Shown piece by piece: positions 1 through 4,940 of a stretch of 34,582 nucleotides of DNA. The translations under genes and the position numbers were made by a program. Position 1 is the stretch's first letter. Each line of letters begins with the position of its first letter. The notes beneath the pieces are model-generated. The model was not told the DNA's origin. It was given only the letters and a program-made list of their open reading frames with translations, and did no database searches. This DNA is from a virus (taxonomy: Duplodnaviria; Heunggongvirae; Uroviricota; Caudoviricetes), in IMG/VR virus record IMGVR_UViG_2623620495_000015, one strand, 5' to 3'.

Positions 1-237
1 ATGATGGTTAGAAATGAAGTAATGAACCTGGACTGGCACCGCGAGTACATTGTCGCAGCTGTGCACACCAAAGGTTTTACGTTGCGTGAACTGTCTGTTC
101 GCGCTGGTCTAAAAAAAGACTCTTTAAAAAATGCATTGTATCGCTCATGCCCTAAATATGAACGCATCATAGCCGATGCTATTGGTGTGGAACCTGCGGA
201 GATCTGGCCAAGCCGGTATGCCAGTAAGGCGGCGTAA
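1..237 (+). CDS. ner: Ner-like DNA-binding transcriptional regulator
   Basis: 78-aa ORF; C-terminal ...AIGVEPAEIWPSRY resembles Mu Ner (from memory); TAATG overlap with the transposase start. Confidence 0.75.
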   Translation: MMVRNEVMNLDWHREYIVAAVHTKGFTLRELSVRAGLKKDSLKNALYRSCPKYERIIADAIGVEPAEIWPSRYASKAA

Positions 238-2279
238 TGTTTTATTCAGCCAATGAACTGGCCGGTCTTACTGGTTTGCCCGGTACAGTTCAGGGGGTGC
301 GCTGGACGCTCAATCGGATCACAGAGACGCACCCGGAATGGAAGCGCAAGCGTGAAGGCACCAAAGCATTCGAGTATCACATCGACTGCCTGCCCGCTGA
401 AGCGCAGAAGGTTTTACGTAAGCGCCTGACTCATCAGGTCCTGGAAGATGCACAACTGCCCGCCGTGGTTGAGCAGAAGGCAGTTAAAAACGTCGCCGTT
501 CGCGATGAACTGGAAGTGATGGTCAAATGCCCGGAACTGGCATTACGCGAAGTTCAGGCACTGACCGACAAGCAAAAGGCCATCGCTGATGCGCGGATAT
601 TGCTGGCTACTGAAGTGCATAAACTGCGTGAATACGCAGGAATGTCCAGGACGGCGGCGATAAAACACATCGTTGATGGTATCCGCCAGGAGGCTTTGCC
701 CGAGCGCGTTATTGTGGCAGGTAATACCGCCAATGCCCGACAGGGTAAGCGAACTGGCGTCAGTACAGGGAGTTTACAGGAATGGTATTCCTCCTGGCTG
801 ATGGCGCGCGGTGATGCCAATCAGTTACTGGCGTTACTGGCCCCCGGTCATCATAAGGGAACACCGTGGGAGCAGGTCTGGTGGTTGAGCGATTTCTTTA
901 TGTTCTATCGCTCATGGAAGCGCCCGACCGTTGAATATGCGTATCGCGAGTTTTCAGCCTGGTGGCATGAAAAACACGCGAATGATGCGGGAATGCTGGC
1001 GGCACTGCCTTCAGTTCACGCAGTAAGACGGGTGTTAAGCAACGTCCCGGTGATTGTTAAAGAGCGTTTCCGCTCCACCGGTTCAGCCTGGCGTTCGCTC
1101 AATCCCTTTGTGCGGCGCGACTGGAGCACATTACCGGTTAATGCGGTATGGGTCGGGGATGGTCACTGCATGAAAATGACCGCGTTTAACCCCCTGACCG
1201 GCAATATTTTTCGGCCAGAAGTGACGCTGGTTATGGATGCGGGTCAACGCTTTGTTGTGGGCTGGTCACTGTCCCTGTCGGAGAACGTGGTGGCCGTTGC
1301 TGACGCATTGCGTCATGGCATGTCACAACACGGAATACCGCTGATTTATTACTCCGATAACGGGGGCGGTGAAAAAAACCGGGTACTTGATGCCGATATT
1401 ACCGGGATTCTGCCCCGGCTGGGTGTGGAGCATCACACAGGGATACCAGGTAACCCACAGGGGCGCGGGGTGATTGAAAGGCTTAACAAGGAAATTCCCC
1501 GGGATGTGGCCTTGAGCTTCCAGACGTACTGCTCAAAGGGAGCAGACAAGGAAACCGTAATGATGCAGCAACGGATTATGCAGTCAGCCATTAAGGCCAC
1601 CCACAAAGGGAAAGAGCTGACAAAACGGCAGGTTAAGGCGAGGGATGAAATCCCTACCTTTGAGCAACTGATGGCAGCCATAGAGCTGGAGGTCAGACGC
1701 TATAACAACCGGCCACACAGCAGCCTTCCCCGCAAAGAGGATGGCGAATATTACAGCCCGGCAGCGTATCGCCGGAAACTGATAAAAGAGCAGAATGTTG
1801 AAATTGATTTCCTGTCGCCGGAAGAACTGCATGAAATGTTCAGGCCGGAAGTAACGCGCAAAACTTTTCGCGGGGAAATTCAGTTATTCAACAATATTTA
1901 TTACTCGTATGAGCTGGCAGCAGAGCACGGGAATGAAGTCAGGGTCAGTTACGATATTCATGATGCAAACAGTGTCATTGTCCGGCGGGCTGATGGCTCT
2001 TATATCTGCGACGCCATCTGGAACGGTAACAAGGTTGATGCCTTCGCTAAACCAGTTATCGAACAAAAACTGGAGAAACGCGTCAGGGGCCGCATTGCAC
2101 GGGCCACGCAGAAAATCGAAGAGGCTAAACGCGAGCTTACCCCGGCTATTACGCAGAAACCTGACTTTAATTTTGGATTTGGTCTGGAGCACAAGGAGGA
2201 AAAGAAAAAAGAAGAACTTTATTTCTTTGTATCCGAGCGTGACCGCAATTTAAAGAAAGACGGTACAAACAACCGTTAA
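237..2279 (+). CDS. A: Mu-type DDE transposase (MuA-like)
   Basis: 680-aa ORF immediately after ner and before a MuB-like ATPase; length and position match Mu A (663 aa); recognisable similarity to Mu transposase from memory. Confidence 0.88.
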   Translation: MFYSANELAGLTGLPGTVQGVRWTLNRITETHPEWKRKREGTKAFEYHIDCLPAEAQKVLRKRLTHQVLEDAQLPAVVEQKAVKNVAVRDELEVMVKCPELALREVQALTDKQKAIADARILLATEVHKLREYAGMSRTAAIKHIVDGIRQEALPERVIVAGNTANARQGKRTGVSTGSLQEWYSSWLMARGDANQLLALLAPGHHKGTPWEQVWWLSDFFMFYRSWKRPTVEYAYREFSAWWHEKHANDAGMLAALPSVHAVRRVLSNVPVIVKERFRSTGSAWRSLNPFVRRDWSTLPVNAVWVGDGHCMKMTAFNPLTGNIFRPEVTLVMDAGQRFVVGWSLSLSENVVAVADALRHGMSQHGIPLIYYSDNGGGEKNRVLDADITGILPRLGVEHHTGIPGNPQGRGVIERLNKEIPRDVALSFQTYCSKGADKETVMMQQRIMQSAIKATHKGKELTKRQVKARDEIPTFEQLMAAIELEVRRYNNRPHSSLPRKEDGEYYSPAAYRRKLIKEQNVEIDFLSPEELHEMFRPEVTRKTFRGEIQLFNNIYYSYELAAEHGNEVRVSYDIHDANSVIVRRADGSYICDAIWNGNKVDAFAKPVIEQKLEKRVRGRIARATQKIEEAKRELTPAITQKPDFNFGFGLEHKEEKKKEELYFFVSERDRNLKKDGTNNR

Positions 2280-2296: not shown

Positions 2297-3190
2297 ATGA
2301 GTTTAATTACGCAATTAAATGACGTAATGGCCCGTCGCGGCTATACGCAGACCCACGTAGCCCGTGCTATTGGGCGTAGTAACGCCGTTATTAACCAGTA
2401 TTTGCAGGGTAAATATCAGGGCGATATCGCTGATATCGAAGAGCGAATTTCTGCCTTTGTCAGCCGTGAACGGGAGAAAGAAAACAATCGCCGTGTTAAA
2501 GCAAATTTTGTTGCCACCAATATGGCTGCCAAAGGACTGGAAGTGCTGGCCTACGCTCACCTGGAATGTGAAATCTGTGTACTGTATGGCGCAGCAGGCC
2601 TTGGCAAAACAATGATTCTGCGTGAATACGCAGCCAGAAACCGGGATGCGGTCCTGATTGAGGCTGACCCGGGCTACACAGCCAGGACACTGCTTGAGGA
2701 GTTGTGCCGCCAGCTGGGGGTAAAGGTTCGCGGCAACATTCACGAACTGATTGATGCCTGTGTGCGCGAACTGGGTGATTCCGGTCGTCTGCTGATGGTG
2801 GACGAGGCTGAACTGCTACCCTATCGCGCACTGGAGGTTCTGCGCCGTCTGCATGACAAGGCGGGTATCGGGATTGTCCTGGCGGGTATGCCACGCCTTC
2901 TGATTAACCTCAAGGGGCGTCGTGGTGAGTTCGCCCAGTTATACAGCCGTGTTGCGCTGGCGCTTAACCTGGGCGACACGCTGTCGCAGGAAGATTTTAA
3001 CCAGATAGCCACAGAGCTGATGCCGGAAGCCGTTGAACCGGAAATCAGCGAGGCGCTTTACACGCGCTCGTTGGGTAATGCCCGCCGTCTGTTCAAACTG
3101 GCGCGCGGTGTGTACCGGATTTGTGATATCAGCGATGCCCCCGTCAGCGTGCAAGCTATTGATGATTTCGCAGAAATGTTAATTCACTGA
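2297..3190 (+). CDS. B: MuB-like AAA+ ATPase, transposition target DNA activator
   Basis: 297-aa ORF; Walker A GAAGLGKT; MVDEAE Walker B-like; N-terminal HTH-like segment; follows the transposase as in Mu. Confidence 0.85.
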   Translation: MSLITQLNDVMARRGYTQTHVARAIGRSNAVINQYLQGKYQGDIADIEERISAFVSREREKENNRRVKANFVATNMAAKGLEVLAYAHLECEICVLYGAAGLGKTMILREYAARNRDAVLIEADPGYTARTLLEELCRQLGVKVRGNIHELIDACVRELGDSGRLLMVDEAELLPYRALEVLRRLHDKAGIGIVLAGMPRLLINLKGRRGEFAQLYSRVALALNLGDTLSQEDFNQIATELMPEAVEPEISEALYTRSLGNARRLFKLARGVYRICDISDAPVSVQAIDDFAEMLIH

Positions 3191-3204
3191 CAGGGAGTTA
3201 TCGT

Positions 3205-3537
3205 ATGGAAAAAATGGCTCTCAGAAATGAAATCAGGGCACTCAGGAATATTGGTTGTCATGGGCGCGTTTATTTTGATGGAACCCCTGGTGAAATTATT
3301 CCGTTTGTTGATTGCCGCGTGCCGGGTGAACTGTACATTGATTTGTATTCCCGCGAACGGGAAATCAATGGAATCGGAAATACCAGCGATGACTGGGATG
3401 TTGATGAATGCTATATGCGATTAATGATTATCCCTTTTGAGCAGAATTTACAGGGGTTTCGCCGGGCTTATCGTCTTGCGCGTATGTGTGCCCGTCTTCC
3501 CCGTTATCAGCCACGGCTTGCGTTTGCACTCAGATAA
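3205..3537 (+). CDS. hypothetical early protein (110 aa), candidate inserted accessory gene
   Basis: ATG with GGGAG RBS 7 nt upstream; bracketed by an 18-bp direct repeat of the B 3' end. Confidence 0.5.
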   Translation: MEKMALRNEIRALRNIGCHGRVYFDGTPGEIIPFVDCRVPGELYIDLYSREREINGIGNTSDDWDVDECYMRLMIIPFEQNLQGFRRAYRLARMCARLPRYQPRLAFALR

Positions 3538-3563
3538 TGCGGCAGAGAAATGTTAATTCACTG

Positions 3564-3803
3564 ATGGAGAACAAGATGATGGACAAGCAGACCATTAACG
3601 CCGTCCGTTCCCGTGCCCGTGTGGCCATCCATACCACCGGCGGTCGCGTAACGTGGCAGCATCACCGTTTACCTGTGGTTTATGCCTGCCCGCCCGTGGG
3701 TGGTCCTGTATGGCCGGTAACGGAAATCATCCAGACATTCAGCGGCCTGCGCCGCGTGGTTAAAACGTCCTGTATCGACGGCTGCACCGTCGTATGGCAA
3801 TAA
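3564..3803 (+). CDS. hypothetical early protein (79 aa)
   Basis: ATG overlapping the TGA of the repeat copy (TGATG); in frame with track ORF 3486..3803; Cys-rich. Confidence 0.4.
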   Translation: MENKMMDKQTINAVRSRARVAIHTTGGRVTWQHHRLPVVYACPPVGGPVWPVTEIIQTFSGLRRVVKTSCIDGCTVVWQ

Positions 3804-3815
3804 GAGGAAATCAGA

Positions 3816-4031
3816 ATGACAGTTAAATTAGAAGTAATTATCTATACCAATGAAAAAGGCATGACTTTAACCCAGATTACAGGGAGTTATTCGAAGGACG
3901 TCACTTCCGAAAGGGAGTTTCAGGTGGCAACAGGATTACATGATGTTATCAAGGACGCACTGAGAAATGACTACAACGGTGTGAATATTTTTTCTGAAAA
4001 CGTTGCACCTTGCGCACATAACGCACGTTAA
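3816..4031 (+). CDS. hypothetical small protein (71 aa), AT-rich
   Basis: AGAGGAAA RBS; markedly AT-rich compared with neighbours. Confidence 0.45.
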   Translation: MTVKLEVIIYTNEKGMTLTQITGSYSKDVTSEREFQVATGLHDVIKDALRNDYNGVNIFSENVAPCAHNAR

Positions 4032-4060
4032 TCTGTAAATATCACTGAGGTAATTTAATT

Positions 4061-4705
4061 ATGACGACTGAAAATAAAGTTAAACAATATACGAAAAACC
4101 AGGTGACCGAAGGTTACTGGGTGGATGCCCGTGGCGTAATGACACCTGAAAGTCTGATTAAGGATATTGACCGCGACCGCGAGCAGCTGGTCGGTGAGAT
4201 TGTCGAACTGGTGATTGCTGCCTCCGCCTCGCTGCGTGATTTGAAACTGCGCGCGTTTGGCGATATTCAGGCATTTATTGACCTGTCGGCGGAGAAATAC
4301 GGCGCTGTGAAAGGCGGCAAAAAAGGCAATATCACGCTTTACAGCTTTGACGGGCGTTACAAGATTCAGCGCGCCATGCAGGACCGTATCGCGCTTGATG
4401 AACGCATTCAGACCGCGAAGGCGCTGATTGATGACTGTCTGGCTGACTGGACGGAAGGTGCACGCCCTGAAATTAAAGCCATCATCAGCGAGGCATTCAG
4501 CACGGACAAGGAAGGCAACATTAACACCGGGCGCGTTCTGGCTCTGCGTCGTCTCGATATTACGGAGGAACGCTGGGATAACGCCATGAAACTGATTGGT
4601 GAAGCCGTCCAGGTGGTTGGCAGCAGAAGCTATATCCGCGTGTATGAGCGCGTCGGTGATTCTGCTGAATACCGCGCAATCCCGCTTGATATTGCAGGGG
4701 TTTAA
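4061..4705 (+). CDS. hypothetical early protein (214 aa), possibly DUF3164-like
   Basis: GAGG RBS; mixed-charge globular composition; resembles a family seen in Mu-like prophages (recalled, unverified). A full-length antisense ORF (4055..4708) is judged a shadow. Confidence 0.55.
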   Translation: MTTENKVKQYTKNQVTEGYWVDARGVMTPESLIKDIDRDREQLVGEIVELVIAASASLRDLKLRAFGDIQAFIDLSAEKYGAVKGGKKGNITLYSFDGRYKIQRAMQDRIALDERIQTAKALIDDCLADWTEGARPEIKAIISEAFSTDKEGNINTGRVLALRRLDITEERWDNAMKLIGEAVQVVGSRSYIRVYERVGDSAEYRAIPLDIAGV

Positions 4706-4706
4706 C

Positions 4707-4940
4707 ATGCATCAGGATATCAAAGAGTACAGAGCCAGAAATAGTTGCGCGGCGTATTCGCTGGGCGCGTCCAGAGCAGAACAACGCGGCGATTATGCCG
4801 AAGCTGAAAAACTGTGGCGTAAGGTAGCACAAAGCCCGTGTAGTACCCTGCGCCGCATCTGGGCGGAACACCGGGCAGAGTTCTGTGCCAATGCTCACCT
4901 GAAAGGATGGAAGCCGCCTCATGAACGCGAAGAACTTTAA
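4707..4940 (+). CDS. small ANR-like regulator candidate (77 aa)
   Basis: ATG 2 nt after the upstream stop; pattern AE..G.Y.EAE.LW...W.E.RAEFC resembles small prophage ANR-family proteins (memory only). Confidence 0.4.
   Translation: MHQDIKEYRARNSCAAYSLGASRAEQRGDYAEAEKLWRKVAQSPCSTLRRIWAEHRAEFCANAHLKGWKPPHEREEL

Follow-up and report, generated by a model that had tools for sequence, protein, structure and literature searches.

For tailed phages, mosaic joints that arise by illegitimate or short-homology recombination at gene boundaries have long been proposed, a pattern associated with the name of Hendrix. Here, we analyzed one gene boundary in the IMG/VR virus record IMGVR_UViG_2623620495_000015, a stretch of 34,582 nucleotides (the window), which opens with the early (Pe) operon of a Mu-like Escherichia coli prophage (a ner-like gene, A, B, orf110, kil and onward). 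Between the MuB-like gene B and the kil-like gene lies orf110, a gene for 110 amino acids that is bracketed by two copies of the 3' end of B. Illegitimate and homeologous recombination have been discussed as competing sources of phage mosaicism (Martinsohn et al., 2008, PMC2327257). The locus resembles such mosaic joints in that it appears to be a boundary joint between diverged relatives, with a crossover in a few bases of microhomology and with freely recombining flanking modules. Unlike at the usual joints, both parental junctions and the product are still present in the databases, and a crossover out of register seems to have left a visible 19-nt coding duplication of a kind that is rarely preserved.

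In the Mu-like phages of Pseudomonas, accessory genes have been described in "regions of genomic plasticity" with single-gene insertions and deletions (Cazares et al., 2014, PMC4378225); no flanking sequence signature was reported for them, and the mechanism of their acquisition was called mysterious (PMC4378225). orf110 resembles these genes as a short accessory open reading frame (ORF) at a fixed site between core early genes, a class found mostly in the left arm; it is likewise present or absent among close relatives and has a GC content below that of its neighbours. It differs from them in that a signature is present and interpretable, and the phage lineage and the host are different as well. 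Compared with the morons of Juhala and Hendrix as described in PMC4378225, orf110 is likewise an additional gene that separates two genes lying side by side in relatives (the empty alleles described below, and Mu) and has a deviant GC content, but the promoter and terminator of its own that mark a moron were not found. Also unlike morons, it is located inside an early lytic operon, and its family is long-standing in this slot and not foreign DNA. Phage Mu shares the ner-A-B-kil operon layout, and the gene downstream of orf110 matches the Kil PHROG. The Mu gene that resembles orf110, gp8/E7 (locus L034, 5062-5481, 139 aa, phrog_3690), is encoded three genes downstream of kil and not directly after B as orf110 is; its product exceeds that of orf110 in length and can be aligned only in part.

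The repeated B end and three junction states

A preliminary description of the window, made from its letters alone, had reported an 18-bp direct repeat at 3173-3190 and 3547-3564, the first copy of which encodes the EMLIH-stop of MuB. The 18-mer GAAATGTTAATTCACTGA indeed occurs exactly twice in the window, and the exact repeat is in fact 19 nt long (AGAAATGTTAATTCACTGA, 3172-3190 and 3546-3564, spacing 374). In dinucleotide-preserving shuffles two matches to the 18-mer, with three mismatches permitted, were obtained in 0 of 100 cases. The assignment of the first copy was correct, since the product of B (2297-3190) matches Pfam AAA_22 (2.6e-22) and PHROG 296, "DNA transposition protein" (3.5e-103); it is 32% identical to Mu B (blastp 5e-20). 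Exactly one gene lies between the copies, as described: the ORF at 3205-3537, whose ATG follows GGGAG (3193-3197) at a distance of seven bases.

Two details of that description had to be revised. The repeat does not extend to about 23 bp (GCAGA…): the additional bases are out of register by 2 nt in the window, and positions 3538-3545 (TGCGGCAG) are homologous to the spacer that separates orf110 from kil in repeat-free relatives, not to B. The TGA of the second copy (3562-3564) does overlap an ATG (3564-3566), but the next gene probably does not begin there, and we place its start at 3579. The ATG at 3579 aligns with the start of the Salmonella-type homologue and is the start annotated by RefSeq in alleles that have ACG at 3576; GGAG at 3566-3569 would be its Shine-Dalgarno sequence.

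At the protein level, most of the B homologues that were compared keep the C-terminal motif (E/N/K)MLI(H/N/S/K), which distant homologues encode with synonymous changes; the B protein of locus L008 ends in GLLIH. The length of the repeat varies with the allele. It reaches 22 nt in L010 (CGCAGAAATGTTAATTCACTGA), and it is imperfect in L011, L012 (B ends at 2986) and L021 (B ends at 3290), which carry a B allele about 82% identical to that of the window that ends in EMLIK (…TTAAGTGA), while their second copy still reads …TTCACTGA. The second copy, hereafter called the relic, thus stays linked to the kil side and shows no homogenisation with the left copy.

To describe the junction in nature, 5,426 complete E. 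coli genomes were surveyed, 58 of which have the B/kil junction of this prophage. Ten of the 58 are filled, i.e. they contain the full 500-501 bp of the query, and 48 are empty (127 bp), with exactly 374 bp fewer. Among 14 IMG/VR contigs, nine are empty and five are filled. The preliminary description had named the lack of any empty-site variant in relatives as the observation that would speak against a recombination footprint; such variants were found in both collections.

Three states of the junction could be distinguished. In the empty form (state 0), which has a single repeat copy, B is joined to kil as B-TGA-T-GGAGAAC-AAG-ATG-kil. Here B ends with …TTC-GCA-GAA-ATG-TTA-ATT-CAC-TGA and T-GGAGAAC-AAG-ATG(kil) follows, the junction reading …CACTGA and then TGGAGAAC… up to kil (in aligned form …GCAGAAATGTTAATTCACTGA and then TGGAGAACAAGATG…). 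Phage Mu has the same layout, with kil directly after B and an 18-nt spacer. The clean filled form (state 1) runs B-spacer-orf110-TAA-TGCAGC-GGAGAAAT-CATC-ATG-kil, the spacer between orf110 and kil being TGCAGCGGAGAAATCATC-ATG, and contains no second copy. It was found in prophages with a 75-76%-identical orf110 allele, one of which is named Salmonella enterica by NCBI, in one metagenome relative (49% identical) and in four more distant relatives. State 2, in which the gene is present and a B relic of 19-22 nt precedes the kil leader, comprises 11 loci (the window, L003, L009-L015, L021 and L022). Six of them (L009-L012, L014 and L022) have the variant TAA-TGCAGC-GCAGAAATGTTAATTCACTGA-T-GGAGAAC…, and the window, L003, L013, L015 and L021 have TAA-TGCGGC-AGAGAAATG… or TAA-TACAGC-AGAGAAATG…. 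Aligned with each other, the filled junctions form the series TGCAGCGGAGAAATcatcATG (state 1), TGCAGCGCAGAAATGTTAATTCACTGATGGAGAAC (state 2, L010 type) and TGCGGCAGAGAAATG… (state 2, window).

Every filled allele whose B and kil are of the E. coli type has the relic, which was found in none of the relatives outside the E. coli type. The flanking genes differ between the filled states: identity to the window is 82-97% for B and 94-97% for kil in state 2, compared with about 70% and about 68% in state 1. The preliminary description had taken the repeat for the footprint of a gene cassette inserted by recombination at the B junction. The recombination part of this interpretation holds, because empty alleles exist and clean filled relatives locate the crossover; the insertion of a foreign mobile cassette is not supported.

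The lineage of this prophage is absent from isolated-phage records: 50,697 phage records gave no match in blastn (distant mode) with the 1-kb region, in tblastn with ORF110 or in tblastn with Kil. A profile search of species-representative genomes yielded no relative, and an exact scan of these genomes for the 18-mer gave seven matches, about the number expected by chance, the only enterobacterial one (L032) being located outside a B-gene context. Two of the filled copies of the prophage are located on 249-kb records that are classed as plasmids and not as chromosomes (NZ_OZ547097.1 and NZ_OZ547049.1).

Origin of the second copy

Comparison of the three junction states makes it likely that the second copy is a recombination scar from an exchange between a filled and an empty phage. 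Only the right-hand copy is the scar. The data support an out-of-register exchange between relatives and not the insertion of a mobile cassette. A state-1-type genome as the left parent would have recombined with a state-0-type genome as the right parent to yield state 2, and the crossover would have occurred within a microhomology of 6-9 nt, (C)G(G/C)AGAAAT, located 19 nt upstream of the B end. G(G/C)AGAAAT is common to the Shine-Dalgarno spacer of the donor kil gene and to the B codons Ala-Glu-Met; the switch stretch is 9 nt long, and 8 positions match between donor spacer and B. State 1 reads TGCAGCGGAGAAAT followed by catc, state 0 reads ttcGCAGAAAT followed by GTTAATTCACTGATGGAGAAC, and state 2 is a chimera of both. 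As at a mosaic joint, junctions of both parental types are known and the product combines them, with few common bases at the switch.

Had the crossover taken place in register, GGAGAAAT would have been paired with GGAGAAC of the recipient, leaving no trace. The pairing that occurred would have been 19-21 nt further upstream, thereby placing the B tail of the recipient behind orf110. An out-of-register crossover of this kind brings the last B codons of the recipient and the native kil leader behind orf110, and kil would have kept its native upstream sequence. The relic together with T-GGAGAAC is a contiguous copy of the state-0 junction, B coding sequence included, which suggests that the abutment of B and kil (state 0) predates state 2. 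On the left side, B of state 2 is of the E. coli type up to its tail. The two B types are about half identical in the 27 nt 5' of the tail, and the 18-nt tail is the only identical stretch between them (they are otherwise about 70% identical), which puts the left boundary in the tail or in the spacer just after it. It may have been generated by a second exchange within the 18-nt tail or by a later replacement of B.

Several observations weigh against this account. We infer the order of events and the crossover mechanism from present-day sequences, and no intermediate was observed while forming. A state-1 allele with E. coli-type B and kil, which would be a candidate donor, was not found among the relatives, and the synonymous divergence (dS) between orf110 of state 1 and of state 2 is saturated (dS ~1). 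The two variants of state 2, with GC or AG at the equivalents of 3544-3545, could stem from two independent events or from one event and a mutation; the haplotype structure is too mosaic to choose between a single origin and multiple origins of the relic junction. Furthermore, the relic is conserved beyond what a neutral scar would be, so that describing it as a mere scar may be incomplete.

Pairwise comparisons of the three genes gave incongruent dS values, showing that the region recombines freely. Between L011 and L021, dS is 0.014 for B, 0.23 for orf110 and 0.22 for kil; between L003 and L021, it is 0.018 for kil and 0.098 for orf110, most of the latter gene being common to both, and 0.66 for B. 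The B gene closest to that of the window (96.9% identical) is located in an empty prophage (L019), and 298 of the last 300 nt of B are identical between L010, a filled locus, and L001 and L002, which are empty. Since B is nearly identical across filled and empty loci, presence or absence of orf110 has changed recently relative to the divergence of the flanks. The direct repeats of 19-22 nt that bracket orf110 also make a precise loss possible, by which state 0 is regenerated. Some empty alleles may therefore be secondary losses, which would look like primary empty alleles.

The ease of such a loss raises the question whether the E. coli lineage started from the two-copy filled state and every empty allele is a deletion between the repeats, so that the repeat would record loss. 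A deletion between repeats of 19-22 nt that are 374 bp apart is mechanistically easy and gives exactly the empty junction, filled and empty alleles have nearly identical flanks (298/300), and the orf110 family is old and widespread in the post-B slot. We nevertheless consider this improbable as a general explanation, although it is likely true in part, in that some empty alleles are secondary. It provides no source for the second copy. The relic consists of coding sequence from B and runs into the kil leader as in the empty alleles, which requires that B and kil abutted first; in Mu itself B abuts kil, and relatives outside the E. coli type have no relic. A mobile element or site-specific cassette (a transposon or miniature inverted-repeat transposable element (MITE), an integron-like cassette or a homing element), with the repeat as target-site duplication or attachment site, would account for repeats directly flanking a single gene and for the precise empty site. 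Usual target-site duplications are, however, far shorter than 19-22 nt, the unit has neither terminal inverted repeats nor an attC-like palindrome at its 3' end, and its 110-aa product lacks any transposase, integrase or endonuclease signature. In addition, the unit was seen only in the post-B slot in every homologue context fetched, and the clean filled alleles have no duplication, their spacer supplying the left part of the "repeat". Mobility of the 374-bp unit is thus very improbable. A transposon, insertion sequence (IS) or MITE was rejected because unrelated sites of insertion were not seen and because the only inverted pair in 3100-3700 (12 nt, 83%, 3352-3363 and 3608-3619) does not lie at the ends; an integron cassette was rejected since the 3' end of the unit lacks a palindrome and the surrounding genes are those of a Mu-like phage (A, B and kil). 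Pure coincidence, which has nothing in its favour beyond the shortness of the sequence, can practically be dismissed: the shuffles produced no second match, the repeat spacing equals the length of the indel to the base, and the arrangement persists among alleles with up to 15% nucleotide divergence in orf110. Shuffles, the 374-bp alignment and the E. coli census together refute a chance origin.

A 27-mer, AGAAATGTTAATTCACTGATGGAGAAC, is invariant in all 11 state-2 loci. In 10 of these loci with eight haplotypes (L022 was omitted because of a frameshift in kil), 0 of 19 relic sites were variable, compared with 36 of 104 near-neutral sites nearby (Fisher p = 0.0009); kil third positions, the last 16 third positions of orf110 and adjacent non-coding bases were counted as near-neutral. 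Moreover, the relic keeps …CACTGA where the resident B ends with …AAGTGA, which argues against homogenisation with the left copy. The relic might therefore be a selected cis-element, e.g. the upstream part of the kil translation-initiation region, a present-day function being added to the same origin; we rate this as rather unlikely. Tentative roles for it would be an A/U-rich leader or a context for termination and reinitiation, via the mini-ORF ATG-TTA-ATT-CAC-TGA that the relic contains at 3550-3564 in frame with orf110. Likewise, recombinants that kept the relic might conceivably have been favoured by selection. The sequences are related and not independent and the site counts are small, and re-import from the protein-constrained B tails of the abundant empty phages would mimic constraint on the relic. 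State-1 phages and distant relatives express kil without such an element, and the tails of distant B genes vary at synonymous sites, showing that there is no deep constraint at the nucleotide level. We rank the functional reading low because the sequences are non-independent and deep relatives manage without the element.

A stronger version is more doubtful still. It holds that the duplicated B tail is functional, translation of kil depending on a preceding B end, and that the repeat pair makes orf110 a reversible module that can be lost without a scar and regained at the population level. If this were true, relic and repeats would constitute a natural "linker" as postulated in the modular theory of phage evolution.

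The orf110 protein family

The ratio of non-synonymous to synonymous divergence (dN/dS) of orf110 ranges from 0.04 to 0.57 across pairs and is mostly 0.1-0.3; by this measure orf110 is a real gene under purifying selection. Its exact product is on record as a hypothetical protein of E. coli. The family is small, with seven clusters at 90% identity (from 5.8 billion proteins) and 21 representatives at 50% identity (from 1.84 billion), and it has the conserved motifs EIxALR, DxYSxxRE, DWDVD and FRRAYRLARL. Family members are encoded directly 3' of the MuB gene of a Mu-like prophage in every context fetched. Judged by its genomic neighbourhoods, orf110 is not foreign cargo but belongs to a family that is a long-term resident of the post-B slot.

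A profile and structure-prediction search of the 110-aa protein, as had been proposed with the preliminary description, revealed a remote profile similarity to Mu gp8 and no family or fold match. Sequence searches with ORF110 and 23 family members against Pfam, PHROG, PADLOC, NCBIfam and the PDB gave no match; in particular, the PADLOC models of defence-system proteins gave nothing for ORF110 at E <= 1, and PHROGs gave nothing for the 23 members at E <= 0.1. No paralogue of orf110 was present at other positions of the window. An AlphaFold model built from five close sequences was poor (predicted local distance difference test score, pLDDT, 57); with an alignment of 23 sequences the pLDDT rose to 74 and was about 85-90 over residues 31-100. 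Three parts of the protein are predicted: a helix at the N-terminus, a small beta-sheet and a long helix at the C-terminus. The acidic, beta-rich core carries the DWDVD motif and the C-terminal helix is arginine-rich (FRRAYRLARM), with a net charge of -8 for residues 21-80 and of +8 for residues 81-110. Fold searches with this model gave no significant match.

In profile comparisons, the orf110 family could be aligned with the first 77 residues of Mu gp8 (18 bits in hmmsearch; a probability of 92.7% in hhalign, over 64 columns), and blastp gave a marginal match (E ~7e-4 in a set of 23 sequences). Mu gp8 itself matches phrog_3690 with 2.7e-95. The orf110 family is therefore probably a remote homologue of Mu gp8/E7 and not a member of phrog_3690. 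Since gp8 has no assigned function, this link adds no mechanism.

Because orf110 has no promoter or terminator of its own, it is presumably read within the early transcript, and its position inside the early lytic operon makes expression from the repressed prophage unlikely. As 83% of the E. coli prophages of this type lack the gene, it seems to be dispensable. Based on the early-operon site, this dispensability and the likeness to the semi-essential region of Mu, our best guess is that orf110 encodes an early, non-essential accessory factor like those of the semi-essential early region of Mu. As to what it does, all proposals are guesses: an action against the host, by takeover or counter-defence as the preliminary description had suggested, is slightly favoured, modulation of MuB or of transposition is a considerably weaker candidate, and the chance that it does something else is a little smaller again.

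Genomic context and implications

The features of the region are listed in Table 1; the assignment of the transposase and B genes agrees with the RefSeq annotation of homologous loci. Spacers homologous to 3191-3204 lie 5' of the gene in further filled loci. The GC content is 0.462 for orf110, 0.537 for B, 0.591 for kil and 0.542 for the whole window. A consensus scan of 2900-4100 detected no promoter or terminator above chance (two weak promoter-like sites compared with 1.8 expected, and no terminator-like site), and no Rfam family matched in the region.

Table 1. Positions of genes, spacers and repeat copies at the start of the window.
Feature	Position	Strand	Remarks
ner-like gene	1-237		at the start of the window
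Mu transposase gene	237-2279		upstream of B
MuB-like AAA+ transposition ATPase gene (B), 297 aa	2297..3190	+	C-terminus …AEMLIH-TGA
Repeat copy 1, AGAAATGTTAATTCACTGA	3172..3190	+	true 3' end of B, codons EMLIH-stop
Left spacer with orf110 Shine-Dalgarno sequence GGGAG (3193-3197)	3191..3204	+	read from the sequence; missing in empty alleles
orf110, 110 aa	3205..3537	+	previously unannotated post-MuB family; remote similarity to Mu gp8/E7
Putative donor-derived spacer TGCGGCAG	3538..3545	+	homologous to TGCAGCGG of repeat-free relatives (junction comparison, alignment)
Repeat copy 2 (relic)	3546..3564	+	non-coding B 3' end; joined to the kil leader as in empty alleles
AGAAAT microhomology, putative crossover site	3546..3551	+	donor GGAGAAAT / B GCAGAAAT; deduced from the three junction types
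kil leader TGGAGAACAAGATG, GGAG at 3566-3569	3565..3578	+	same as the B/kil spacer of empty alleles
kil-like gene, 74 aa, alternative start 3576	3579..3803	+	PHROG 2679 match
71-aa gene	3816-4031		phrog_7438, function not known
DUF3164 gene	4061-4705		downstream of the 71-aa gene

The product of the kil-like gene matches phrog_2679, "Kil protein for bacterial septation inhibition", with 1e-34 (protein 1-75, profile 5-78 of 79). It is weakly similar to Mu Kil (34% identity over 44 aa, E 4e-4 in a comparison of 13 proteins) and 61% identical to the product of the gene that follows orf110 in the Salmonella-type loci. A precomputed match to PF26843 Kil_protein exists for the gene at the equivalent position after orf110 in L017, the locus of the orf110 relative P0008. 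At 3562-3591, across the kil leader and the start of the coding sequence (first codons), there is a tandem near-repeat of 15 nt (TGATGGAGAACAAGA and TGATGGACAAGCAGA, 80% identical), which may be due to chance or to an old duplication.

A second variable slot was observed at the junction of kil and the 71-aa gene (3804-3815 in the window), where L002 (3531-3988), L019 and L022 contain about 446 bp extra with two small ORFs. The indel in L002 was checked for a scar like that at the B/kil junction, and no flanking repeat or scar was found. The N-terminus of the first extra ORF, VSVKLTIVFTD, is like that of the 71-aa gene (MTVKLEVIIYTN), which suggests that the two are tandem paralogues. With a GC content of 0.394, far under the window mean of 0.542, the 71-aa gene may be another accessory gene. 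In L021 (E. coli RM9088), two IS1A copies are located at 1288-1985 (in the transposase gene) and 4061-4758 (in the 71-aa gene), and this prophage is probably defective. Early operons of relatives (L017 3209-3424, L006 6385-6909, L008 5418-5942) contain a Lar-type restriction-alleviation gene (PF14354) and, where the DUF3164 gene is located, either DUF3164 or Mu Gam, which look like alternative modules of one slot.

Taken together, the locus is a clear and unusually legible case of ordinary phage mosaic evolution, which leaves the current understanding of phage evolution unchanged. Since joints normally carry no signature, gain or loss of a single gene between phage core genes is usually invisible; here, donor-type, recipient-type and recombinant junctions all survive, so that the event can be reconstructed at single-base resolution. 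The crossover proposed here, which was shifted by 19 nt from the proper register and lay within a microhomology of 6-9 nt, would be a good teaching example and a testable case. In addition, a small and formerly unannotated protein family is now tied to the post-MuB slot, which provides a handle on an uncharacterised gene of the semi-essential region of Mu.

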